The notes under the pieces: generated by a model
Told to the model about the DNA's origin: nothing
The model's input: only the letters and a program-made list of their open reading frames with translations
Database searches by the model: none
Origin: Candidatus Daviesbacteria bacterium RIFCSPHIGHO2_01_FULL_40_11
GTDB lineage: Bacteria; Patescibacteriota; Microgenomatia; Daviesbacterales; UBA10151
DNA: 42,030 nt
NCBI GenBank assembly: GCA_001776635.1
Contig: MFCP01000021.1
Span: 1-42,030 of the forward strand
Direction: 5' to 3'
Program-made: the position numbers and the translations under genes
Shown here: piece by piece, positions 26,811 to 39,108 of the stretch
Layout of the letters: every line of letters begins with the position of its first letter
Position numbering within the stretch: position 1 is the first letter of the stretch

Positions 26811-27225
26811 CTCGGAAAAGCAGACACAACAAATAGCACGGCAATTGGCAAAAATGGTTCGACAAGCTCACCATAAAAGAAAGGTATTTGCTTTAACCGG
26901 CGAGCTCGGAGCCGGCAAGACTATTTTTGTCCAGGGATTTGCAAAAGGATTAGGAATTAAAGACAAAATTATCTCACCTACTTTTATTTTAATCAGGCAA
27001 CATAAAATTCCTGATACAACACAAACTCTTTATCATATAGACCTGTACCGCTTAGAGGATACGAAAGATTTTAGACATATGGGACTTAAAGAAATTTTAT
27101 CAGATCCAAATAATATTGTTTTAATTGAATGGGCAGAAAAAGCAAAAGAACTTTTGCCAAAAAATACTGTCAAGATAAACATCTCTAAAGGGGACGACCA
27201 AAATAGAGTCATTGCTATTTCTTAA
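26791..27225 (+). CDS. tsaE: tRNA t6A biosynthesis ATPase TsaE
   Basis: 144 aa. P-loop LTGELGAGKT, SPTFILI, YHIDLYRL, IEWAE. Confidence 0.85.
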   Translation: MAKYLSSSEKQTQQIARQLAKMVRQAHHKRKVFALTGELGAGKTIFVQGFAKGLGIKDKIISPTFILIRQHKIPDTTQTLYHIDLYRLEDTKDFRHMGLKEILSDPNNIVLIEWAEKAKELLPKNTVKINISKGDDQNRVIAIS

Positions 27226-28744
27226 CCTCACGCCTTACTTCAAGCTCTAAAGAACCTAACATTTCTTTTGAAACAAATTCCATATCTTTAAAATCATTTT
27301 CCCAAGCCTGTCTCATTTGGATTCTGTCCGGTTCCTTTATTAAGAATATGAGTCCCGAGAAATTGTCTTTTACGCCTTGGAATTTTTCTTGACTTGGAAT
27401 GTAGGTTGGTTTATTGGGAGAATAAACATATTCCCCCGGAATATATCCATATTTTTTCTGCCCATACCACCAAAAAAGATACTGATACGGATAATCATAA
27501 ACCGAAGGCAGATAAGTATATACTTTAAAGTTTTGCCCCGCTGCTTTTTGATAAACATAATCTATAGCCGATATTTCATTCTTATATAACGAAGGGTCCA
27601 AATTAGGTTTTCCCAAGTCGTTTAGAAAAAAGTTGCCAATATTGAGTAGTCCAAACCAGACAATTGAAATCGAAAGAGCAACAGATATCAATTTGCTAAC
27701 TATCCTTCCCTCCATGAGTTTTTTAAGAAGATATGCTATCAATATTAGCGAGACCGCCATATCTCCCCCCAAATGCCAAGGATTAACAGTAACAGGTAAA
27801 ATTAGGTAACCAAGAAAGGGAACAGCAATAAAAATCATACTAACGTAAACTAACTTATCTTTCTTTGCTTCTTTTATAAAATTGTAAGCTAAAGGAACAG
27901 AAAGAAGTAGGATTATACCGGTAAACATTTTATGGTTCATCAGTATCGGCAAAAATGTGTCATAAAAACTGGAGGCAATAACTTGGAAACGATTCAAAAA
28001 GTTGAATCCATTACCGGAATTTTCCGACAAGTGCCTCAAAATTGCCCTACTCATTATAAATTGATGTCTTAAGTCAAAAATAATTTGTGGCAACAAAGTT
28101 AATGCAAAAGCGCCAACTCCTACCCAAAACCCTTTTTGTTTCAGAAGCTTTAAATTTTTTGTCAAAATTACACTAGCAAGGATTATTAATGGGATAAATA
28201 TTCCAAAATTCATCTCGAAATTAAAAAACAATCCGCCTAAAAACCAAGCAGAGATTACGTAAATTACCTTTCCATTTTCTAAATATTTAACTAATAAATA
28301 GATAAATAAAGGCGAAAGGAGCGTTACCGGATTTGGGTTAAAAGCATAAAGGTTAGTTAAAACTATGTAGTTTGAGGCAATCCAGATAGCACCTATGGGT
28401 ATTACCAGAAAGCTACTCCATCTGTTCACTAACTTCAGCAGGAAAAATCCCCCAATTGCCCAAAGCAGAATCTCCATTAAAATCGAAGTATACGGGTCAC
28501 CCCCTGAAAGCACAAAGGGTATTGCGAGTAAATAATACCATGCCGGGCCGTTATAAAAACCCTCGATTGCAGACGTCGGACCTATAAGCCGCAGTTTTGG
28601 TAAAACTACCATCTCCCTTACATCAACCATATCCCGGGCATTATCCATGTTAAAAAGAAAATTCCCGTTTGCTGTTAACGCCAGCCGGTACAAAATACCA
28701 ATAAATAAAATTACCAGGACAACAATTGTGAGATTTCTACTCAT
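27215..28744 (-). CDS. GT-C-type membrane glycosyltransferase-like protein (D-x-x-RD / LIGP-TS family), tandem paralog
   Basis: 509 aa and polytopic. Motifs: FNMDNARDMVDVREM...LRLIGPTSAIEGFYNGPAWYYLLAIP. C-terminal domain with FWWYGQKKYGYIPGEY. Confidence 0.7.
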   Translation of the reverse strand: MSRNLTIVVLVILFIGILYRLALTANGNFLFNMDNARDMVDVREMVVLPKLRLIGPTSAIEGFYNGPAWYYLLAIPFVLSGGDPYTSILMEILLWAIGGFFLLKLVNRWSSFLVIPIGAIWIASNYIVLTNLYAFNPNPVTLLSPLFIYLLVKYLENGKVIYVISAWFLGGLFFNFEMNFGIFIPLIILASVILTKNLKLLKQKGFWVGVGAFALTLLPQIIFDLRHQFIMSRAILRHLSENSGNGFNFLNRFQVIASSFYDTFLPILMNHKMFTGIILLLSVPLAYNFIKEAKKDKLVYVSMIFIAVPFLGYLILPVTVNPWHLGGDMAVSLILIAYLLKKLMEGRIVSKLISVALSISIVWFGLLNIGNFFLNDLGKPNLDPSLYKNEISAIDYVYQKAAGQNFKVYTYLPSVYDYPYQYLFWWYGQKKYGYIPGEYVYSPNKPTYIPSQEKFQGVKDNFSGLIFLIKEPDRIQMRQAWENDFKDMEFVSKEMLGSLELEVRREVKK

Positions 28745-30227
28745 TTGTTTTTGGGACCCTTACTTGCAGTTTAATAGAACCATAACTTATCTCTTTAGTC
28801 AATTTTGTTTTACTGTTCTCCGTATCCGACTCTTCATTGTAAAATCTTGGCGGGATCCCATCAGCAGGCTCCATTATTAAAAATGATTTATCTTGTGGTT
28901 TATCAATTTTTTTCAAAGACTCAACCCCTAATAAACCAACCTGGTCATGGCCGTAAAATGCTGGAACATACCCATATTTACCTTTACCATACCAGGAATA
29001 CAGATAAGCCCAAGTGGTATTGGTCCAAAGGGGGAGAGTAACAGTATTGATTGAGAAGGCGCTGCCTGATGCCTCTTTGTATGTTTCATCAATTAAACTC
29101 AATTGATTTTTTAAATTCATATCATTTGGAATGACCAAAATAACTTGACCATCGGGATTATACTTAAAAATTGCTGCCAGATTGGAAAGCAGGCTTAAAA
29201 AAATAACTGCAAAAACCAGTATCTTACTAACCCTCCAAATACTCCGAAGCAACACTACAACCGCTAGAATTGCCGGAGTTGAGAGTCCGATATTTGCATA
29301 AGTGTTTGTATGCCCACCAAATAAAAATATGGGAATATTCGAGAAAAGATAGAAGTAAAGTATGCGCTCCTTTCTAATGAAATAGACAACAACAAAAGAG
29401 AGAACCCCTCCTAATAAAACGTTCGTAGGGAAGAAATTAAATGTAAAGATTTCTGTAAACCTATTAATATAATTATGGAATAACTCATCAAATTGGGGTC
29501 TAAAATCAATCTGTCCGGCTGTCCCGATATTAGAAAAACCAAGAAATATTTTTTCAAAAGTTTTAAATTTAACTGCTGCAACAAAAAAGTTAATTAGCCC
29601 CAAAAGGGCAACTAGGCAAGATATACCGATTACTTTTGGGTGCGTTTTGATTTTAAAAATAATTCCAAATATCGGGATTAAGAAAAAAAGATAAATCAGG
29701 AAAAATTGAAATTGGGTAGACAGTGCAGCTAAAAGAGTAGCTAAATACAATCCATAAGTTTTACCTTTCTGCCACTCTCGTAAGAACAGAAAGAATAGGG
29801 CAATAGTGAATACCGCAGGAGCAGGATTGGAAATCCAAGAGGCATATTGGGTTGCCTCAAAAGATACCACAAAAAGAAATCCAGCAAGAATAGCCCATTT
29901 AGTACTCTTAAAAAGATCCTTAGCCAAAATTACGATCGGGATGATCACAATGGAATTGAGAAATGATAGGAAAATCGCCACGACCCTAGGATCTCCTTGA
30001 CCCAACATGTAAAAAGGAGCAATCAGATAATAATAAAAAATACCGTGGTAAAGCCCCGATGTTGAAGTCGGAGGACCTAAAACTTTTAAGTCATGATTTT
30101 TCCAAATCTGCTCTGCTTCATAGGCATCCCTCGCCATATCATAATGAAACGACACACCTCCCTGGTAGATAAAGAGTATCCTGATAATAAATGCCAGTAT
30201 TACCAACACAAAAATTGCCTTAATCAT
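28737..30227 (-). CDS. GT-C-type membrane glycosyltransferase-like protein (D-x-x-RD / LIGP-TS family), tandem paralog
   Basis: Motifs: FHYDMARDAYEAEQIW...LKVLGPPTSTSGLYHGIFYYYLIAPF, and C-terminal YSWYGKGKYGYVPAFY. I prefer the ATG at 30227 (MIKAIF...), supported by TTGCAA, 17 nt, TACATT, then 7 nt. The ORF track uses the TTG at 30263, which lies inside that -35. Confidence 0.7.
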   Translation of the reverse strand: MIKAIFVLVILAFIIRILFIYQGGVSFHYDMARDAYEAEQIWKNHDLKVLGPPTSTSGLYHGIFYYYLIAPFYMLGQGDPRVVAIFLSFLNSIVIIPIVILAKDLFKSTKWAILAGFLFVVSFEATQYASWISNPAPAVFTIALFFLFLREWQKGKTYGLYLATLLAALSTQFQFFLIYLFFLIPIFGIIFKIKTHPKVIGISCLVALLGLINFFVAAVKFKTFEKIFLGFSNIGTAGQIDFRPQFDELFHNYINRFTEIFTFNFFPTNVLLGGVLSFVVVYFIRKERILYFYLFSNIPIFLFGGHTNTYANIGLSTPAILAVVVLLRSIWRVSKILVFAVIFLSLLSNLAAIFKYNPDGQVILVIPNDMNLKNQLSLIDETYKEASGSAFSINTVTLPLWTNTTWAYLYSWYGKGKYGYVPAFYGHDQVGLLGVESLKKIDKPQDKSFLIMEPADGIPPRFYNEESDTENSKTKLTKEISYGSIKLQVRVPKTNE

Positions 30228-30234
30228 CACCTCT

Positions 30235-30263
30235 AATGTAACCACACTAAACTTTTTTTGCAA
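30235..30263 (-). promoter_or_regulatory. Promoter of the tandem GT-C pair
   Basis: Minus strand: TTGCAA, 17 nt, TACATT, 7 nt, ATG(30227). Confidence 0.5.
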
Positions 30264-30310
30264 TCCTCCCTTTTTGTCATTCTGATCCGGCTTTGTCGGA
30301 GAAGAATCTG

Positions 30311-30319
30311 TGTTAAAAT
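30311..30319 (+). promoter_or_regulatory. Extended -10 for galE
   Basis: TGtTAAAAT, 7 nt, ATG(30327). Confidence 0.5.
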
Positions 30320-30326
30320 TAATCTC

Positions 30327-31247
30327 ATGAGGGTTTTAGTTACAGGTGGGGCCGGATTCATCGGATCCCATGTCAATAAATTACTGCTGGATCAGGGGCA
30401 TTCAGTTACAGTTGTTGATGACCTATCAAAAGGACACCAAGACTCCATAGATGCTAGGGTAGATTTTCACCAAATTGGCCTTGAAAACCAGGAGGAACTT
30501 GAAAAAATTCTGCCGGGCCACGACGGCGTTATCCACATGGCTTCTTTTATAGAAGTTGGCGAGTCGGTTAAAAAACCGGTGGAGTTTGCTCAGAATAATA
30601 TTGTAGGAACTGTGAAATTACTTGAGGCCATGAAAAATGCTAACGTAAAAAAAATGATTTTTTCCTCAAGTGCTTGTGTTTATGGCAAACCTGAAAAATT
30701 GCCTATCACGGAAGAAGATCCTTTAGGAGAGCAAGAAAATCCGTATGGAATAACCAAAGTAACTATGGAAGAGTTTTGCAAGCTATTCCATACCCTACAC
30801 AATTTTGATGTTACAATTCTTCGTTACTTTAACCCCTACGGCCCGGGTGAGCTACATGAGCCGGAAACCCATGCCATCCCTAACTTTGTAAAATCAGCTC
30901 TTACTAAAACCCCGATTCCCTTATTTTGGAAAGGTGAACAAATTAGGGATTTTATTTTCATTGATGATTTGGCCCAGGCCCATATCCTGGCTCTAACCCT
31001 GACAGGATTACATATATATAATGTAGGAACGGAAAGCGGGGTAAAAGTCGCTGATGTCGTAAAGCAGATTTTTGAAATTGTCGGGTACGAAGTTCCTATA
31101 GATGATAAAGGAGAAAGAAAGGGTGATGTGCCGGCTTTAGTTGCATCATCTGAAAAACTCAAAAAAGAATTGGGCTGGAACGCAAAAGTAAACCTAGAAG
31201 AGGGCCTTAAAAAAACCATCGAATTCTTCAAAAATCAAAACCTTTAA
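30327..31247 (+). CDS. galE: UDP-glucose 4-epimerase-like NAD-dependent epimerase
   Basis: MRVLVTGGAGFIGSH, SSSACVYG, YGITKVTME (YxxxK), RYFNPYGPG. I prefer the ATG at 30327, with TGtTAAAAT 7 nt upstream. The ORF-track N-terminal extension (from 30258) is implausible. Confidence 0.8.
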   Translation: MRVLVTGGAGFIGSHVNKLLLDQGHSVTVVDDLSKGHQDSIDARVDFHQIGLENQEELEKILPGHDGVIHMASFIEVGESVKKPVEFAQNNIVGTVKLLEAMKNANVKKMIFSSSACVYGKPEKLPITEEDPLGEQENPYGITKVTMEEFCKLFHTLHNFDVTILRYFNPYGPGELHEPETHAIPNFVKSALTKTPIPLFWKGEQIRDFIFIDDLAQAHILALTLTGLHIYNVGTESGVKVADVVKQIFEIVGYEVPIDDKGERKGDVPALVASSEKLKKELGWNAKVNLEEGLKKTIEFFKNQNL

Positions 31248-32115: not shown

Positions 32116-33588
32116 ATGCGCAGATCCCATTTATTAATCCTGGCGTTAATTTTAGTTATTGGCCTATTTTTTAGATCCTATCAATTAACTGAGCGGTTTG
32201 AATTTGCCCATGACGGAGACCTATATTCCTGGATCGTCAAAGATATTGTCGTAAACCATCACTTCCGCCTCATAGGACAATTAACATCTGCTCCTGGCAT
32301 TTTTATTGGAGGTTTATTCTACTACTTACTGATTCCATTCTTCTTATTGTCAAATATGGATCCTATCGGCACAACTAGTTTTGCAATAATAATTGGCCTG
32401 GTAACAATATTCAGTTTATATTTTGTATTATCAAAATTATTTAAAACTGAAGTAGGTTTAATCGCTTCCTTCTTGTATGCAACTTTACTTACCACCGTCA
32501 ACGCCGACCGGTGGATTGTCCCGACTGTTACCACTAATCTTTGGGTTATCTGGTATTTCTACGGAGTCATCAAGATCGCTCGGGGTGATTATAGAGTCCT
32601 TCCTATTTTGGGGATACTCATCGGTTTAATATGGCATGTCCATATTGCCCTGATCCCGGCACTAATTGCAATCCCTGCCGCAATCTATTTTGCAAAAAAA
32701 TTACCTAATACGAAACAAGTTGCCCAATTTTTTATTGCATTATTCGCAACTTCTTTACCGCTTCTGATGTTTGAAGCAAGACATGGATTCGGACAAACTC
32801 TTAGCTTAATAAGTAATTTCACTACCCCTCAGGTAGGTGCAACCGGATTATACAAGCTCACTCTGGTTTTAAATATGGTCGTAAAAAATATAAGCGTCCT
32901 CTTCTTTGCTCCACAATCTTTCAGTCAGACATTTAACATATTTTTTGTTTTAATAATTATTCTTTTAGGATTTTTATTGATAAGAAAAAAGATTTTATCT
33001 CAAAAAGAGTTTCTAATTTTCTTAATCTGGATTGCCGGAGTAATTGCTTTCTTTGGACTCTCTTCATCACCAATCTCCGAATATTATTTTTCCAACATTG
33101 GAATAATCTTTTTAAGTCTGGTCAGCCTTTTGCTATATCTGATATTTAAATCCTCCTACTTAGGTAAGGCTTTGGTAGCCGGCCTTTTGATACTTATTCC
33201 CATTAAGAATGGTTATTTTATGATTACTCAAGATTATTATCACAAGGGGTATATAGAGAAAAAAGCAGTTGTGAATTTTATAAAGACGGACTCGGAAAAT
33301 AGAGGTTTTCCCTGTATAGGAATAAGCTATATCACAGCAGCAGGGGAGAATGTTGGGTTTCGATATTTCTTTTATCTTAAAAACATGCATCTAGTACATC
33401 CATCTCTTAACATCCCTGTCTATAACATAGTTATCCCTGACGAGCTATCTTTAGGGGAAGCTAAACAAAAATTCGGTCACATCGGAGTAATTCCACCAAC
33501 TAAAGTTCCGTCACTAGAGACCATACAGAAAACCTGCCAAACCCCTAATACCAATTTAACCGATTCACTGTTTGGGTATGTAGACTAA
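32116..33588 (+). CDS. GT-C-type membrane glycosyltransferase-like protein (D-x-x-RD / LIGP-TS family)
   Basis: 490 aa and polytopic. Motifs: FAHDGDLYSWIVKDIV...FRLIGQLTSAPGIFIGGLFYYLLIPF. Has a C-terminal soluble domain. Confidence 0.7.
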   Translation: MRRSHLLILALILVIGLFFRSYQLTERFEFAHDGDLYSWIVKDIVVNHHFRLIGQLTSAPGIFIGGLFYYLLIPFFLLSNMDPIGTTSFAIIIGLVTIFSLYFVLSKLFKTEVGLIASFLYATLLTTVNADRWIVPTVTTNLWVIWYFYGVIKIARGDYRVLPILGILIGLIWHVHIALIPALIAIPAAIYFAKKLPNTKQVAQFFIALFATSLPLLMFEARHGFGQTLSLISNFTTPQVGATGLYKLTLVLNMVVKNISVLFFAPQSFSQTFNIFFVLIIILLGFLLIRKKILSQKEFLIFLIWIAGVIAFFGLSSSPISEYYFSNIGIIFLSLVSLLLYLIFKSSYLGKALVAGLLILIPIKNGYFMITQDYYHKGYIEKKAVVNFIKTDSENRGFPCIGISYITAAGENVGFRYFFYLKNMHLVHPSLNIPVYNIVIPDELSLGEAKQKFGHIGVIPPTKVPSLETIQKTCQTPNTNLTDSLFGYVD

Positions 33589-33592
33589 AACA

Positions 33593-34426
33593 CTAAATTA
33601 CCTTTAATAATTTTATTGCTTTAGGCAAAAGCGGCAAAACATCGCTTGCTAAAACCCCTGCATTACCGATCTTTTTTCTTAATATTTCCCCTGCCAATCC
33701 ATGAATATACACTCCGACTGCAGTCGCATCAAAAGGTTTTAAACCCTGAGCCAACATTCCGGCTATCGCTCCGGCCAGGACATCACCGGTACCGGCAGTA
33801 GCCAAAGCCGGATTGGCGAAAGGGCTTAAAAGCACCTCCCCGCTGGGGGAGACAATCACAGTATTTGTTCCTTTAAGTACTAAAACTTTTTCCCATTTCT
33901 TGGCAAAATATTGTGCGACGTCAATTCGGTCTGACTGGATTTCTTTAATAGTTAAACCTGTTAACCTGGCCATTTCCCCCGAATGGGGAGTCACTACAAC
34001 TTCTCCCTTTAAACTTCTCCACCACTCCCCTACTTTGGATAAAATATTTAACCCATCACCATCAATCACCGTTGGGGGCAAATTGCTGTTTAGAAGATCT
34101 TTCACTAGCTTTACCGTTTGATCGCTTTGTCCCAAGCCTGGACCAATCAATACAACGTCATATTCATTGATTTTTCCAACTACCTCATGGGGCGGTAGAA
34201 AAGTTACCTCAGGCAATTTTCTGGAGACTATTATCTTAACTGTCTGTTCTGTGGCCAAAGTTACCAGACCGGCTCCAACCCGGTAACAAGCTACACAAGC
34301 TAAATATGGCGCCCCCGGATAGTTTTCCGATCCGGCAATAACCAGTACCTTCCCAAATGTTCCTTTATGGGCATTTTTAGGTCTGGTTGGTAATTTTTTA
34401 GCTACCCACTCTTTAGTCAATTCCAT
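33593..34426 (-). CDS. nnrD: ADP-dependent NAD(P)H-hydrate dehydratase (YjeF C-terminal-type)
   Basis: 277 aa. Motifs: HKGTFGKVLVIAGS, YPGAPYLA, GAGLVT, LIGPGLG, TPHSGEMARL, LKGTNTVI, ATAGTGDVLAGAIAG. Confidence 0.85.
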   Translation of the reverse strand: MELTKEWVAKKLPTRPKNAHKGTFGKVLVIAGSENYPGAPYLACVACYRVGAGLVTLATEQTVKIIVSRKLPEVTFLPPHEVVGKINEYDVVLIGPGLGQSDQTVKLVKDLLNSNLPPTVIDGDGLNILSKVGEWWRSLKGEVVVTPHSGEMARLTGLTIKEIQSDRIDVAQYFAKKWEKVLVLKGTNTVIVSPSGEVLLSPFANPALATAGTGDVLAGAIAGMLAQGLKPFDATAVGVYIHGLAGEILRKKIGNAGVLASDVLPLLPKAIKLLKVI

Positions 34427-35957
34427 AAAACTTCAGTCTCTCTGATTGAAGATTTGTTTGGTTTTCAATTCTGGAAGGCAAAACAAAAAGATGGGTACTA
34501 CCGCCATTTTTCTTAATTTCTTTATATTGAGTAAGAAATTGTCCTAAATCCAAGCCCTTGCAATCTTCACAGTAGAAAAAAGTTGGCGGATTTTTATTAA
34601 ACAATTCATGTATTTTTTTGTGAAACTCCGGAATGCCACTCGTCCAAGCATAGTAACCAAATAATTTAGGGGGGTGGTGAGTATCTGATTGCCAATAAAC
34701 AAGCCAAGCATCGGGCGAGACAAATAAAGTATCTTCCGGATTTTTCATAATATTAATAATTTGGCCAATATCGGTATGTGTTGAATAATTAGTTGTATAT
34801 TCTTTTTGTAGATCACTCTTTACAAATAAAGCTTCTTTTGCATAACTCAAACCTGCAAGAAAAGATGCCGTTATTATTACAATAGTAATAATCTTAAAAA
34901 GTCTACCAACATTTTGTTTGAATTGTTCGGTAGAAACTAATAAACTAACAAAGATCAAAACCGAATACCAAGGTAATAAGTGAAAACCTCCGTAAGAACC
35001 GACTCCGGGAGACACAAACCTAATATTACTTAATCCCAACAAAACCACTAACATCAGAGCCCATCTTAACTTACCTCTTTGAATCAAATAAATTATATTT
35101 ATTATCAACATTATCGAGAGCAACCTAATTATCCAAAGGATAGAAGTAACATCGGTCCTTATAAAAGAAAACAGAGGGCTGGCGAAGGCTTTAAGGATCG
35201 TCGCAATCCATGGCTCCCTATAGTATGAAGCATGATATGCTGGGATTGTATAGACAAAGTTAAGAAATAGATAGTTGTAAATATAGCCGGTGAAAGAGCT
35301 ATATTTTCCTACCAAAAAAGCTACCGCCAAAATGGCCAAGAATAAATATAATAGTTTTTGTTTTGAATAATTTTTAAGCTGAAAGATAAGTAAGCTGCCT
35401 AAGAAAGCTAATGCCGGCCAAATTGGACCCAATGTAAAGAAGGTCAAAGTTAAAGAAATTCCTAAAATGATTAGTGTTAGCTTGTTTAATGTTTTGCGAT
35501 ATAAAACAACGCCTACTATAAACAATAAAGGATAAACTACTATCGATTCTGCCAAGAAAAGGTTTCCGAACATGTAACTTTTGGTGAGTTCGTATAAAAC
35601 TACAAACAAAAATCCCCCTATCCCAAAATAGGTAACTATAACTAGCGCCCAAATACCGGACCAGATAGCAACAGCGACTCGATGAGCCACCAGTAATGAA
35701 AAGGTGGTATTTGGGTTTTTTACCTCTTGCACCAAAGCGCTTAAGATATGAGTTATAGGTTGATGGTTTGTAATAATGTCATCATAGAGAATTTCGCCTT
35801 TCGTCAAATACTTTCCAATAGCAAAATTGTATTGCTCGTCAACAAAGGGAAAAGATAAAGCTGTGCTTTTATAGAAAAATCCAGTTACCAATAAAAACAA
35901 TACGGTGACTACAAACATAAACCTGAACTTAACAGTATTATTGAAGCTTTTTATCAT
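34413..35957 (-). CDS. Polytopic membrane protein, GT-C-like
   Basis: 514 aa, about 11 TM. The first loop has an acidic motif (FPFVDEQYNFAIGKYL). The C-terminal soluble domain contains CEDCKG. It overlaps both neighbours (20 nt and 14 nt). Confidence 0.5.
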   Translation of the reverse strand: MIKSFNNTVKFRFMFVVTVLFLLVTGFFYKSTALSFPFVDEQYNFAIGKYLTKGEILYDDIITNHQPITHILSALVQEVKNPNTTFSLLVAHRVAVAIWSGIWALVIVTYFGIGGFLFVVLYELTKSYMFGNLFLAESIVVYPLLFIVGVVLYRKTLNKLTLIILGISLTLTFFTLGPIWPALAFLGSLLIFQLKNYSKQKLLYLFLAILAVAFLVGKYSSFTGYIYNYLFLNFVYTIPAYHASYYREPWIATILKAFASPLFSFIRTDVTSILWIIRLLSIMLIINIIYLIQRGKLRWALMLVVLLGLSNIRFVSPGVGSYGGFHLLPWYSVLIFVSLLVSTEQFKQNVGRLFKIITIVIITASFLAGLSYAKEALFVKSDLQKEYTTNYSTHTDIGQIINIMKNPEDTLFVSPDAWLVYWQSDTHHPPKLFGYYAWTSGIPEFHKKIHELFNKNPPTFFYCEDCKGLDLGQFLTQYKEIKKNGGSTHLFVLPSRIENQTNLQSERLKFYGID

Positions 35958-38019
35958 TGTCCTTTATTCGCCAAATTTGCGCATTAGCATTCTCGAAGAT
36001 GAGTTCCACATTATAATCACCTGGAGAAAACGGCACTATTTCGGAATAGTTTTCGTATTTAACTACATAAATGTATTTAGCTACCAGACTATCTAACTTC
36101 TTCTTCCCTTCCGGTCTACTCTCGGCAACAAAGATAGAACGGTTGTGAACAATCGGTTTTTTGCTAATTGAACTCACATATCCTCGGATATTGGCAAACA
36201 CCGCCGGCATATAACGGTTGTGCCAGATACATTTTAAACAAGTCTCGTCATAAACAATTACTTTCCCCGGCTCCAGTGCTCTTAAATGCAGGAGCGCATC
36301 GGTTTCCGCTTGGCTTACCGAATAGATTCTCAGCTTAGAAATTGCAAAAAGTGTTGATCCAATCATAAAAATAACACTAAAAACCCAAAAAGCTTTCTTA
36401 TGATAGACCTTAAACTTATAAATAATAATAAGAGAAACAATTAAAACTAACGAGATTAAGGCTAATCTTTTTTGGGTATTTGTTTTAGAAAGATTATAAC
36501 TATTCAAAAGATAAAAAAACTGTGGAGGGAGACTTCGAAAAGTCATGCCTTCCGGAGGAGCGATCCAATGCTCGGCAATGCTTACTTCGGTGGAATGGGG
36601 CAAATCCTTAATTTTCAATAGATCTGAATTTTTGATATATGGGGGTAGATTAACTTCCGAAAAAGTAATTTTATTTTCCTCAAATATTAGAAGTGGATTA
36701 TTAGTCTCAAAAAGAGAATATTTTTCGGCTTTACCAATACTTGAAAAAATTCCTTTAACAGGAATCTGCCAGACGCTCTGTGGATTACTAATTTGGTCAA
36801 TTAAAGAAGGAATATTGATGTAAAGATTAAGTTGGGTATTGGGAGTAAGATAAAACGGTTCTTGGAAATTATCTTGAAAGGTGCGCCAATCAACAATTTT
36901 TAATTCTTGGTTTTCCCCATTATAAGTCAAACCAATACGGTAAGCCGGGGATTGATACCATACAGATTTTATTTTACTACCCAGCAGATCATCGGCTTCA
37001 ATCACATGGGCTGGTGACAAATTAGGAAAAATCTGTCTGTACCATAAACTAAAATCCTTCATATTGGTAACTGTTATGTTCTCTTGAGTGCTGATTCTTT
37101 GAATCATATCCAAATGTTGTGCAAACTTTTCACGATAAGTTTCCTCCGGAAAATCCCCCTCTAAACCTAAAGTTATTTGACCAAATTGATTTTTGTTTTT
37201 AAGAGCATATAATTTAATGAGTTTCTCGTAATATTCATCAGGCAAGTCTCGTGTGTAATAATCCTGAGTGCTGTAAGAGCTGGCTCGCTCCCCGCTATAG
37301 CCATTGAGAGGATCTCTGGCTGCCCATTGGAGCAAAACCAGATCTAATTTCGTTTCAGTGTTCCTGGCAGGCATACCGGCATGATTTTTGCTTGGATAAA
37401 AAGGCGTGGACCAATATTGACCCCAGAGGGAGTAACCATCTGTGTAAAATTGATCTGCACAGCCAAGGGTTGAAGTAATATTGTACTTATCCTTCATATA
37501 GTTTAAAGAAAAACTATCTACCCACCAAGCACCAACTGATTTCGGATAGTATCCGAAATTATTTTTAAATCTCTCAAAAACAACATCTATTAATTTCTTT
37601 CTGTCGTCTTGGCTATATCCGATTAGGAAAACCGAGTTTGATCTGTGCCATGAATCGGTTTTGTTATATGTAACTCCGGCATTTTCGGCAAAATTGGGTG
37701 TCACTTCCAAAAAAATTCCCAGATCCTGTTGTTGATCCATTTGTTTAGCAAAAGTAGCCACTTCTTTGTTTTCTAAAACATCATAGGTAAAAAGCCAACT
37801 CGCCGGTAAATTCCTTTTGCTTACTTCAAAATACTGCGATGCCAGACTTTTAGCCGAATCTTTCGTGTAGGCAGAAACTCTAACAGGATTGACTAGGGTG
37901 ATGAATTGCCCACTGCTTTCACTGCTCTGGCTCTGAGTAAACCCTAATTTTGGTAACAACAGAAGAACACTCAAACAGATACAAGTTTGGGTAAATATTT
38001 TTAATTTGGATAATGGCAC
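35938..38019 (-). CDS. Secreted protein of unknown family (paralog of the 1..2976 N-domain), with 2 TM and a C-terminal domain
   Basis: 693 aa with a GTG start and a signal peptide. Shares NPVR, FLEVTP, TDSWH, VGAWWVDSFSL, LQWAARDPLNGY and MKDFSLWYRQIFPNLSP with the 1..2976 product. An 18-nt stretch is identical at 37522-37539 and 2506-2523. Confidence 0.7.
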   Translation of the reverse strand: MPLSKLKIFTQTCICLSVLLLLPKLGFTQSQSSESSGQFITLVNPVRVSAYTKDSAKSLASQYFEVSKRNLPASWLFTYDVLENKEVATFAKQMDQQQDLGIFLEVTPNFAENAGVTYNKTDSWHRSNSVFLIGYSQDDRKKLIDVVFERFKNNFGYYPKSVGAWWVDSFSLNYMKDKYNITSTLGCADQFYTDGYSLWGQYWSTPFYPSKNHAGMPARNTETKLDLVLLQWAARDPLNGYSGERASSYSTQDYYTRDLPDEYYEKLIKLYALKNKNQFGQITLGLEGDFPEETYREKFAQHLDMIQRISTQENITVTNMKDFSLWYRQIFPNLSPAHVIEADDLLGSKIKSVWYQSPAYRIGLTYNGENQELKIVDWRTFQDNFQEPFYLTPNTQLNLYINIPSLIDQISNPQSVWQIPVKGIFSSIGKAEKYSLFETNNPLLIFEENKITFSEVNLPPYIKNSDLLKIKDLPHSTEVSIAEHWIAPPEGMTFRSLPPQFFYLLNSYNLSKTNTQKRLALISLVLIVSLIIIYKFKVYHKKAFWVFSVIFMIGSTLFAISKLRIYSVSQAETDALLHLRALEPGKVIVYDETCLKCIWHNRYMPAVFANIRGYVSSISKKPIVHNRSIFVAESRPEGKKKLDSLVAKYIYVVKYENYSEIVPFSPGDYNVELIFENANAQIWRIKDNDKKLQ

Positions 38020-38052: not shown

Positions 38053-39072
38053 TTATTGTTTTAATGTACTACCCATCAAAATACTGTTTGCAAAGTAAAA
38101 TCCAGTTTCGCTATTGGGTAATAAATCATATGTTTTATTATCCCAGTATGGAATAAGTTCAGAACTTAAGATTATTGAGCCATCATAGTTTTGTCCTACC
38201 TGTAATTGTCCCGCTTCTAAACCATCAATAGTTGGGTGGTTAGGTGATACCCAAAGTTCCCTACCATCGCTTAAGGTTAAATGAACTACACGATGACTAG
38301 CAGGTGCTTGTGTAGATGATACTTTTATTATATCTACTACAATTTTTTTGCCTTGTTCATTTACAGAATAGACCTTCATTCCTACTTTTAAATCCTTAAC
38401 ATTGACGTCCCCTGTTGGAGTTGCTATCTGGGTATTTGATGCAAGGCAAATCGGACAATTTCTTGGTTTATTAGCCAGTTCCTCAACTTCACAAAAGTAT
38501 CCTGGGGGTTTATCTCCTTCTCTGGCAACAGGTGGACCACAAGCTTGAACACACTTATAACCATCAGGGCAACTATTGTCACTGGGTTCTGAACAGCTGA
38601 CTTTACTTATTGGGTTAGTACAAATATTTCTATGACATACTAATCCCGAATAACAATCGTTATCGGTTTGGCAAGAACCACCTTCTGTTAGTTTGCATTG
38701 ACCCTTAATAATTTTAGTTGTTGGCTGACAAGATGCTTCCGGTAAAGTAAAGGTTCCAGTACTCACCTTGTTTGTACCTTCTGGACAAACTGTTCCTTCA
38801 CCCTCTAAAACCTGACATTTATAACCGCTGGTGCACTGAGAATCATCTGTACAATTTCCGCCCCTTGAAGTATTTAAACTTGTCGGACTCGGAGCTAAGG
38901 AAGGTTCTTGCGAGCCATAAGGAGATGGACTGGGTGTAAGTTGGACATTGTTTATATTATTGACTTTACTTAAATTATTTTTAATATAAAAAGAGCCTCC
39001 TATAATTCCGACGGAAACTATTATAATTCCTAATATAAAAATAATTTGCATAAAACCTTTTTGGGTTGGCAT
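38053..39072 (-). CDS. Membrane-anchored Cys-rich protein with a C-terminal Hint (Hedgehog/intein-like) domain
   Basis: TM anchor (IIFILGIIIVSVGIIGG), an S/P linker, and three C-x5-7-C-x5-C-x3-9-C modules. The Hint domain follows: CLASNTQIATPTGDVNVKDLKVGMKVYS ... LWVSPNHPT ... FYFANSILMGSTLKQ. I prefer the ATG at 39072 (TTGACT, 17 nt, CATTAT, then 7 nt). The ORF track uses the TTG at 39108, which lies inside the -35. Confidence 0.8.
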   Translation of the reverse strand: MPTQKGFMQIIFILGIIIVSVGIIGGSFYIKNNLSKVNNINNVQLTPSPSPYGSQEPSLAPSPTSLNTSRGGNCTDDSQCTSGYKCQVLEGEGTVCPEGTNKVSTGTFTLPEASCQPTTKIIKGQCKLTEGGSCQTDNDCYSGLVCHRNICTNPISKVSCSEPSDNSCPDGYKCVQACGPPVAREGDKPPGYFCEVEELANKPRNCPICLASNTQIATPTGDVNVKDLKVGMKVYSVNEQGKKIVVDIIKVSSTQAPASHRVVHLTLSDGRELWVSPNHPTIDGLEAGQLQVGQNYDGSIILSSELIPYWDNKTYDLLPNSETGFYFANSILMGSTLKQ

Positions 39073-39079
39073 TAATTTA

Positions 39080-39108
39080 ATAATGAAGGTTTCAAATCCA
39101 GAAGTCAA
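39080..39108 (-). promoter_or_regulatory. Promoter of the Hint-domain gene
   Basis: Minus strand: TTGACT, 17 nt, CATTAT, 7 nt, ATG(39072). Confidence 0.5.

Follow-up and report, generated by a model that had tools for sequence, protein, structure and literature searches.

Positions 1 to 42,030 of contig MFCP01000021.1 from Candidatus Daviesbacteria bacterium RIFCSPHIGHO2_01_FULL_40_11 (the window, analysed here at its full length; G+C content 38%) carry, on the minus strand at 38053..39072, a gene for a membrane-anchored, cysteine-rich protein that ends in a Hint domain. This assignment had been made in a preliminary description of the sequence, and searches with the Hint_2 and TIGR01445 profiles, a Foldseek search and a profile search of the Protein Data Bank (PDB) now agree that a genuine Hint domain forms the C-terminus of the anchored Cys-rich ectodomain.

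The open reading frame (ORF) runs over 38053..39108 on the minus strand and encodes 351 amino acids when counted from a TTG codon. The start used by homologues and by gene callers is Met13, an ATG at 39072, which gives 339 amino acids (P0001). All close homologues begin at the position that corresponds to Met13 (M-x-QKGF...), so that the true product is, almost certainly, the 339-residue protein; residue numbers throughout nevertheless follow the 351-residue frame. The sequence statements and coordinates of the preliminary description are all correct, on the minus strand, which it had left unstated. The main features of the protein are as follows.

38053..39072, minus: coding sequence of the anchored Cys-rich Hint protein, 339 amino acids from Met13, stop included (ORF list; translation P0001)
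38983..39051, minus: hydrophobic anchor MQIIFILGIIIVSVGIIGGSFYI, a signal-anchor or uncleaved signal (from the sequence)
38854..38946, minus: Ser/Pro-rich linker (from the sequence)
38455..38853, minus: Cys-rich ectodomain with 16 Cys, C86-C218 (Cys pattern invariant in 36 aligned relatives)
38449..38595, minus: junction module C-x7-C-x5-C-x3-CGPPVAR...Y-x-C...PR-x-C-P-I (C172, C180, C186, C190, C206 and C218 invariant)
38446..38451, minus: predicted scissile junction Ile220/Cys221, Cys221 being Hint residue 1 (Cys1 invariant in 74/74 and 73/73 sequences)
38068..38448, minus: Hint domain Cys221-Ser347, 127 amino acids (Hint_2, TIGR01445, Foldseek, profile search of the PDB)

Profiles and a structural model point to a complete Hint fold

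The Hint domain has the size of a mini-intein and is without an endonuclease. Pfam Hint_2 matches the whole protein with 30.0 bits (E 7.7e-7) and the core alone with 32.7 bits, against a cut-off of 28.4, and all 74 family cores match the same profile (74/74). The NCBIfam model TIGR01445 (intein_Nterm, 'intein N-terminal splicing region') scores 28.7 bits against a cut-off of 24.5. The Hint_2 match is confined to profile positions 1-83 of 147. An AlphaFold2 (AF2) model built with 73 relatives has a mean predicted local distance difference test (pLDDT) of 85.8, with values above 90 throughout Hint, and Foldseek aligns it to inteins, bacterial intein-like (BIL) domains and Hedgehog with probability 1.00, E 1e-7 and template modelling (TM) scores of 0.69-0.79. 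All 50 PDB matches listed by Foldseek are Hint folds, the Ssp DnaB mini-intein and the gp41-1 intein among them; the TMt values are 0.79 for the BIL domain 2lwy (root-mean-square deviation 2.3 Å), 0.77 for the MchDnaB intein and 0.72 for Hedgehog 1at0. When a profile of the 74 cores was run against PDB sequences, it found the consensus DnaE intein (E 2e-7), gp41-1 (1e-5), BIL (1e-3) and Hedgehog (0.02-0.04). According to the model, then, the domain is a genuine and complete Hint fold that extends beyond the N-terminal half covered by Pfam. The profile searches and structure prediction suggested in the preliminary description thus gave Hint profiles above their cut-offs and a matching fold.

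The anchor is a helix over P0001 residues 8-38 in the AF2 model, and homologues have a transmembrane helix or a lipoprotein signal at its position. The Ser/Pro-rich linker that follows is modelled as low-confidence coil (pLDDT about 50), and its length varies among homologues. At the other end, the protein closes with ...ANSILMGSTLKQ-stop, only TLKQ following Ser347.

The ectodomain is modelled confidently (pLDDT 91). Compared on its own with PDB folds, it found nothing significant (best E 0.33), the matches being knottin-like pieces of 23-36 residues with E > 1. Weak matches of the ectodomain to Pfam EB, Lustrin and toxin families and to NCBIfam TraA were set aside, as they merely reflect Cys-rich repeats. 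The three Cys modules reported earlier are exact; four further Cys (C127, C138, C206 and C218) had been left out.

The last part of the ectodomain is the junction module, which leads directly into the Hint domain. The codon of Cys221 lies at 38446-38448 and reads tgc on the minus strand (gca on the plus strand). Residue -1 is Ile in 242/279 members and residue -3 is Cys in 252/279, so that 90% of members retain a Cys at -3, even where the cargos are unrelated. Across phyla, mean pairwise identity is 58% in the junction module and 54% in Hint. The CGPPV Cys-rich module is present in about half of the 292 classified family sequences, and in those members the CGPPVAR…PR-x-CPI module is as conserved as Hint itself.

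The active site keeps the residues of the first step and has lost those of Asn cyclisation

We mapped the Hint positions through alignments with gp41-1 and CatC, using the block nomenclature of Mills, Johnson and Perler (PMC4031507), in which positions B:7 and B:10 assist step 1. Conservation was read from two alignments, one of 73 full-length sequences (A1) and one of 74 core sequences (A2), and from counts over 287 members.

38293..38295, minus: His272 (invariant in 73/73 of A1, at least 90% in A2)
38236..38247, minus: block B Ser288-Pro-Asn-His291, with B:7 and B:10 (Ser and His invariant)
38125..38133, minus: block F Thr326-Tyr-Asp328, with Asp at F:4 (T326 and D328 invariant; aligns with the intein YDL/IDI motif)
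38101..38106, minus: Thr335-Gly336 at the site of intein His F:13 (gp41-1 alignment)
38062..38070, minus: terminal Ser347-Thr348-Leu349 (G:7, +1, +2), followed by Lys-Gln-stop (287-member counts)

Cys1, Ser288, His291, Thr326 and Asp328 are invariant in both alignments. The C-terminal catalytic residues of inteins are replaced. Position F:13 is Thr in 280/287 members and His in none; G:6, Gly346 in the window protein, is Gly, Ala, Asp, Lys or another residue and is never His in the 287 members; and at G:7, here Ser347, 282 members have Ser, 3 have Thr, and one each has Asn and Asp. Alignment with inteins is good over the first part (ANGIL) of block G, whose catalytic end is replaced: in the gp41-1 and CatC profile alignment ANDIL-THN/S stands opposite ANGIL-LGS/T, which bears out the absence of the terminal Asn and the exchange of His-Asn for Gly-Ser that had been read from the sequence. 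The loss of His F:13, His G:6 and Asn G:7 excludes splicing and C-terminal cleavage by Asn cyclisation. One relative, P0028, has Asn at the Ser347 position (…LGN/TLDD), the canonical intein state.

Beyond this replacement the end of the protein is strongly constrained. The +1 residue is Thr in 281/287 members and Ser in 4/287, and +2 is Leu in 278/287, so that the Ser-Thr-Leu end is about 98% invariant although almost nothing comes after it. His272, by its position in the alignments, corresponds to no known catalytic residue of inteins, BIL domains or Hedgehog; it lies opposite Gln53 of Hedgehog (Hh). The preliminary description had overlooked the Ser-Thr-Leu end with Thr at +1, the Cys at -3 and the spread of the cassette family over unrelated cargos.

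The retained thioester-forming set, together with the lost C-terminal cleavage set, provides the strongest sequence argument that the cassette may still work as a module for N-terminal autoprocessing instead of being a dead relic.

Cysteine parity suggests that Cys1 is a free thiol

With the first 35 residues of each member removed, the number of Cys upstream of Cys1 is even in 236/279 members (binomial p 2e-33 against 50:50, the sequences being related and not independent), and Hint has no further Cys after Cys1 in 272/279. The window protein obeys this rule with 16 + 1 Cys, and by parity Cys1 is the sole unpaired Cys in 85% of members. Since the upstream Cys are even in number and Hint is otherwise Cys-free, Cys1 is presumably a free thiol, and parity thereby adds a second, independent argument that Cys1 would be the one unpaired thiol in an exported, disulfide-rich protein. 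Of the family members inspected, one has Ser1 in place of Cys1, Ser being the sole alternative residue capable of step 1, and still keeps Cys-3, which indicates that the nucleophile is preserved and a disulfide with Cys-3 is not.

The cassette closes unrelated anchored proteins in several phyla

A protein search recovered 360 relatives of the window protein, and a HMMER scan with the 146-residue core recovered 1,491 clusters (50% identity) at E <= 1e-3, 1,117 at E <= 1e-10 and 269 at E <= 1e-30. A scan of species-representative genomes gave 283 confirmed matching stretches. The survey of related genomes for the fusion of Cys-rich and Hint parts, proposed in the preliminary description, thus uncovered a large family. 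Its carriers are Patescibacteria, Chloroflexota, Dormibacterota and some bins labelled archaeal, and with the free-living Chloroflexota and Dormibacterota it reaches well beyond presumed epibionts. The window protein's nearest named relative belongs to a Candidatus Daviesbacteria genome (59-62% identity), and no second copy of the cassette was found in the window.

Quite different proteins also close with this Hint, which in them shows 50-60% identity and the same ends, …C-P-I/C-L-A… and …ANGIL-x-G-S-T-L. Chloroflexota and Dormibacterota have it on lipoproteins that bear an ELKY…FPDFFFCDPDFYPVAR domain; Parcubacteria, and bins labelled Nanoarchaeota and Thaumarchaeota, have it on proteins that bear a EGSFLIQKIYPD… domain; and it is also found on long proteins with dockerin, Kazal or DUF5667 domains. 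Every cargo has an N-terminal transmembrane helix or a (lipo)protein signal, and in the shortest members the N-extein is little beyond the anchor and the conserved junction module. Hint lies at most 4 residues from the C-terminus in 248/282 members, and in about 148/150 of the best representatives.

Two metagenomic exceptions, P0138 (cassette at residues 138-314 of 671) and P0163 (525 aa), have an internal cassette with 205-358 residues after it. Their host protein carries a dockerin at the C-terminus and is 66% identical between the two over the aligned N-terminal half. In P0124, a homologous host, the cassette is C-terminal (residues 512-687), and this difference in position between homologous hosts shows that junction module and Hint move as a unit. 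P0138 and P0163 are also natural cases with a real C-extein.

Some members are labelled 'Hint domain-containing protein' by NCBI. In the literature we found no paper describing a CPI/CLA…GSTL cassette family, in the candidate phyla radiation (CPR) or elsewhere, and the family, large and strongly conserved, is apparently undescribed.

Several further observations concern the relatives. An N-terminal M-x-Q-K-G-F-(A/I)-(P/N) motif followed by a hydrophobic helix is common to CPR proteins with differing ectodomains (P0002-P0011, L052, L080, L085; 39052-39072, minus strand, in the window). The QKGF N-terminus bears a faint likeness to a prepilin-type (class III) signal, a reading we rejected, as there is no Glu at +5 and no NCBIfam prepilin match. 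About half of the CPR relatives have a four-Cys module, ACTxEAKxCPDGSxVGRxGPxCEFxxCP, right after the anchor (for example P0011, P0013-P0015 and L044); it is absent from the window protein. Two cassette genes on separate contigs of one metagenome-assembled genome were seen in three pairs (L046/L052, L067/L069 and L056/L065), so the family can be multi-copy per genome. Many bin labels look unreliable: bins named 'uncultured Gammaproteobacteria' hold CPR-type genes (L009, L015-L017, L023, L031, L040, L043, L045, L046, L052, L059), and a Dormibacterota-type lipoprotein occurs in bins labelled Nitrosotalea and Sulfotelmatobacter (L054, L075). For the archaeal label of L060 and L071, the Pfam families of neighbouring genes were uninformative.

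Relation to known Hint systems

From its residues, the cassette would be expected to act like a Hog or BIL domain; it is not a Hog domain, a type A BIL, an intein or a PT-HINT domain, and appears to be no BIL domain in the strict sense. Hedgehog resembles it in layout, with an exported N-terminal cargo followed by a C-terminal, Asn-less Hint from which only the N-to-S shift is expected (1at0, TMt 0.72). The acyl group of Hedgehog is passed to cholesterol. To this extent the architecture proposed in the preliminary description as Hedgehog-like stands; the likeness does not extend to a Hog domain, defined as Hint plus a sterol or adduct recognition region (SRR/ARR; PMC2362128). The cassette has no SRR/ARR, the protein ending 4 residues past Hint, and the Hog profile PF01079 gives 15.7-18.1 bits against a cut-off of 29.7 and matches only 5/74 relatives at all. 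A general base of the Hedgehog type was considered and rejected: Asp46 of the Hedgehog C-terminal domain (Hh-C) aligns to position 265, which is variable (K, H, R, S). Further differences from Hedgehog are the junction (P-I/C-L-A as opposed to G/C-F), the retention of the cargo by an N-terminal transmembrane helix and the prokaryotic hosts.

Among BIL domains, the type A domain of Clostridium thermocellum (2lwy) is the best structural match and is matched in sequence as well. Type A BILs, too, are Hint domains of small size that occur in bacterial secreted proteins and have Cys1, block B and an intein-like block F; cleavage is their dominant reaction, as would be expected of the cassette. They end in His-Asn and have no +1 nucleophile (PMC4031507), whereas in the cassette the last two residues are Gly-Ser, Thr occupies +1 and the domain lies at the protein's very end instead of between two protein segments. 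Type B BILs (Hint_2, PF13403) share the missing terminal Asn, so that only cleavage uncoupled from splicing is expected, and their profile matches the window protein above its curated cut-off. By description, type B domains are said to lack likeness to block G, whereas the C-terminal half of the cassette resembles intein blocks F and G (TYDLL...TG-Y-ANGIL).

The class 1 mini-inteins (gp41-1, DnaB and the consensus DnaE intein 'Cat') give the best profile matches (E 2e-7 to 1e-5) and share blocks A, B, F and the start of G, a similar size and Thr at +1; the cassette differs in having no interrupted host and in the replacement of His F:13, His G:6 and Asn G:7. Tetrahymena BUBL BIL2 (6tmm/6y75) is close in fold (TMt 0.70-0.73), and its Hint thioester ligates an upstream domain to lysine without ATP (PMC8616854). 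BIL2 is cytoplasmic, however, lies between ubiquitin-like domains, keeps its C-terminal Asn (the crystallised form is the mutant N143A) and has 13% identity.

Earlier work, by Bürglin in 2008 and by Dassa and Pietrokovski, had already noted bacterial secreted proteins whose C-terminus is a Hint-like domain, with Myxococcus MXAN_6253, Photorhabdus plu1731, Yersinia proteins and others as examples (PMC2362128). The Myxococcus and Photorhabdus group shares with the cassette a signal peptide, conserved upstream Cys residues and an Asn-less C-terminal Hint-like domain. It differs in its junction and end motifs, …SC/(M or I)… and …FAGGxLVGD… in place of …CPI/CLA… and …ANGILxGSTL, and in its taxonomic range.

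N-terminal self-cleavage is the most reasonable reading

An N-to-S acyl shift with cleavage at Ile220/Cys221 seems the most reasonable reading, because the step-1 set is invariant while all the residues of Asn cyclisation are lost, and we infer that such N-terminal autoprocessing by the Hint domain is likely. The protein would then be a type-II-anchored, disulfide-rich surface protein whose last 131 residues make up a Hint cassette that processes itself in a single turnover. Once the protein has been exported and has folded oxidatively, Cys221, the one unpaired Cys, would attack the carbonyl of Ile220 with the assistance of Ser288, His291 and Asp328, and water or another nucleophile would break the resulting thioester. 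The 131-residue Hint fragment would depart, leaving a membrane-anchored ectodomain that ends ...Cys-Pro-Ile. With His F:13, His G:6 and Asn G:7 each replaced, excision in the manner of an intein would not be possible. Neighbourhood look-ups and clustering of all ORFs in 80 loci revealed no partner gene conserved across clades, synteny being clade-specific, and this is what is expected of a self-contained module.

Several features weigh against simple self-cleavage. Hint and the junction module, at 54-58% identity, are more conserved than a disposable cleavage module should need to be. The near-invariant Ser347-Thr348-Leu349 and His272 have no part in a simple cleavage scheme, nor does that scheme account for the conservation of Cys-3 (90%), and Cys-3 and Cys1 make up a C-x-x-C motif that could in principle form a disulfide. 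The cargo, moreover, is anchored at its N-terminus, so that cleavage frees Hint alone and hydrolysis brings no obvious benefit.

If cleavage takes place, hydrolysis and transfer of the acyl group to an acceptor appear about equally probable outcomes, and plain hydrolysis is the conservative assumption. Transfer would be a sub-case of the self-cleavage reading, and had been proposed in the preliminary description: the thioester would pass to a specific acceptor, such as a cell-wall amine or hydroxyl, an S-layer glycan, a lipid or a host-cell molecule, leaving the protein with its N-terminus in the membrane and its C-terminus covalently tied through an ATP-free and enzyme-free, 'one-shot' extracellular ligation. 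A glycan, lipid or host molecule as the acceptor is purely inferred. The two Hint systems whose natural acyl fate is known to us, Hedgehog with cholesterol and Tetrahymena BUBL BIL2 with lysine (PMC8616854), both ligate, and BIL2 is among the best fold matches. Anchoring speaks for ligation too: cleavage alone would free nothing useful from cargos that are all tethered at the N-terminus, the shortest of which have little more than the anchor and the conserved module upstream, and the strong conservation of Hint would suit recognition of a conserved acceptor. Set against these points, there is no adduct-recognition region after Hint, nothing conserved corresponds to the Hedgehog general base, the 80 loci show no linked gene related to an acceptor, and the carrier lineages differ greatly in their envelopes and include free-living Chloroflexota and Dormibacterota as well as presumed epibionts. 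On balance we regard transfer to a specific acceptor as unlikely. Taken to the family as a whole, the CPI/CLA…GSTL cassette would be a self-contained covalent-attachment device, a built-in counterpart of sortase or of the Lpp-peptidoglycan link, that ties the C-terminus of an N-terminally anchored surface protein either to a host cell or to the envelope of the cell that makes it; it would be in wide use among the ultra-small Patescibacteria and among Chloroflexota and Dormibacterota, with the thioester possibly parked as an ester on Thr +1; this generalisation is tentative and, in our estimate, rather unlikely.

Alternatively, Hint might be non-catalytic and serve as a stable head that tops a Cys-rich stalk and has a binding or structural function, Cys218 and Cys221 forming a disulfide or a redox switch. 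The unusual conservation of the domain and its junction module would fit such a role, as would the C-P-I-C motif in about 90% of members, and a Cys-3/Cys1 disulfide can block inteins, an example being the engineered DnaE 'redox trap' 3nzm, itself one of the fold matches. Parity, however, has Cys-3 pairing upstream and Cys1 free, what is invariant coincides exactly with the catalytic residues of step 1, and the Ser1 member, which retains Cys-3, keeps the nucleophile and not the disulfide. A purely structural Hint is in our view improbable.

The Ser-Thr-Leu end raises another possibility, in which the protein would carry out splicing steps 1 and 2 and stop: the acyl group would move from Cys221 to Thr348 (or Ser347) and stay there, giving a stable branched protein, in effect a stored oxy-ester, in which the N-terminus at Cys221 is free. 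In step 2, Thr at +1 can legitimately act as the nucleophile (PMC4031507); it is kept (or, in 4 members, exchanged for Ser) despite only 1-4 residues following, G:7 is nearly always Ser, and Asp F:4, which in inteins coordinates the successive steps, does not vary. No precedent is known for a branched intermediate as a physiological dead end, though, and Leu349 is equally conserved, which favours a packing or structural role for the Ser-Thr-Leu end; we consider the branched ester very improbable. Lastly, a decayed intein remnant or the PT-HINT of a polymorphic toxin, for which the closeness of blocks F and G to mini-inteins and a weak PT-HINT match in 1/74 members could be cited, is effectively excluded by architecture and conservation: there is no interrupted host protein and no endonuclease, at least 1,117 clusters are under strong purifying conservation, the protein ends after Hint with no toxin domain or immunity gene downstream (the downstream gene encodes a 693-aa membrane protein), and the window protein has no match to the PT-HINT Pfam model.

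Gene neighbourhood

The features around the Hint gene are listed below.

39080..39108, minus: promoter-like TTGACT-17-CATTAT, uncertain (9/12 consensus, in the 39-nt gap from the secA stop to the ATG)
35938-38019, minus: downstream 693-aa membrane protein (hydrophobic N-terminus and near-C-terminal stretches; DUF3863 below threshold only)
30258-31244: NAD-dependent sugar epimerase/dehydratase, about 7 kb from the Hint gene

Four ORFs of about 500 aa around the Hint gene (27215-30263, 32116-33588, 34413-35957) have no Pfam match, so that with the 693-aa protein the Hint gene lies amid a group of uncharacterised ORFs. The gene had been credited with its own promoter and with a place beside glycosylation genes, and neither claim fared well. 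Promoter matches of this kind number 7 in the region against 4.6±2.0 in shuffled sequence, so that a 9/12 match is no commoner than in the controls, and co-transcription with secA is equally possible. As for glycosylation, we found a single sugar epimerase/dehydratase at some distance together with several ORFs lacking a Pfam match. Adjacency to secA is lineage-specific: among the loci compared, secA is nearby only in the Daviesbacteria-like relative, where a few genes separate it from the Hint gene on the upstream side and a gene for NAD(P)H-hydrate dehydratase follows downstream. By themselves, the relative and its shared neighbours would place the source very probably among Microgenomates-type Patescibacteria (CPR). 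Upstream of the Hint-lipoprotein gene, and divergent from it, 9-11 loci of Dormibacterota/Chloroflexota type carry a gene for a MoxR-like AAA ATPase, a 396-aa ORF and a large ORF for a membrane protein (for example L054, 1-3324), a clade-specific synteny; a MoxR/DUF58-like set was seen in Dormibacterota-type loci only.

Implications

To our knowledge, Hint domains are the only protein modules that make a reactive thioester from a peptide bond without cofactors, and outside inteins we know of this chemistry being used in Hedgehog and in the ciliate ubiquitin-like system only. New with respect to the preliminary description are the cassette family, its Ser-Thr-Leu end, the Cys at -3 and the unrelated anchored cargos. 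The family is a natural experiment on the intein mechanism, because it keeps the residues of steps 1 and 2 and has those of step 3 removed. It also places a Hint module on anchored surface proteins of lineages whose surface biology is almost unknown. If the cassette does no more than cleave itself, surface proteins would have in it a maturation signal that is new and widespread. Were it to ligate, it would represent a new mode of extracytoplasmic covalent attachment and, as a compact, 127-residue Asn-less Hint for a disulfide-rich context, might serve as a protein-engineering tool.

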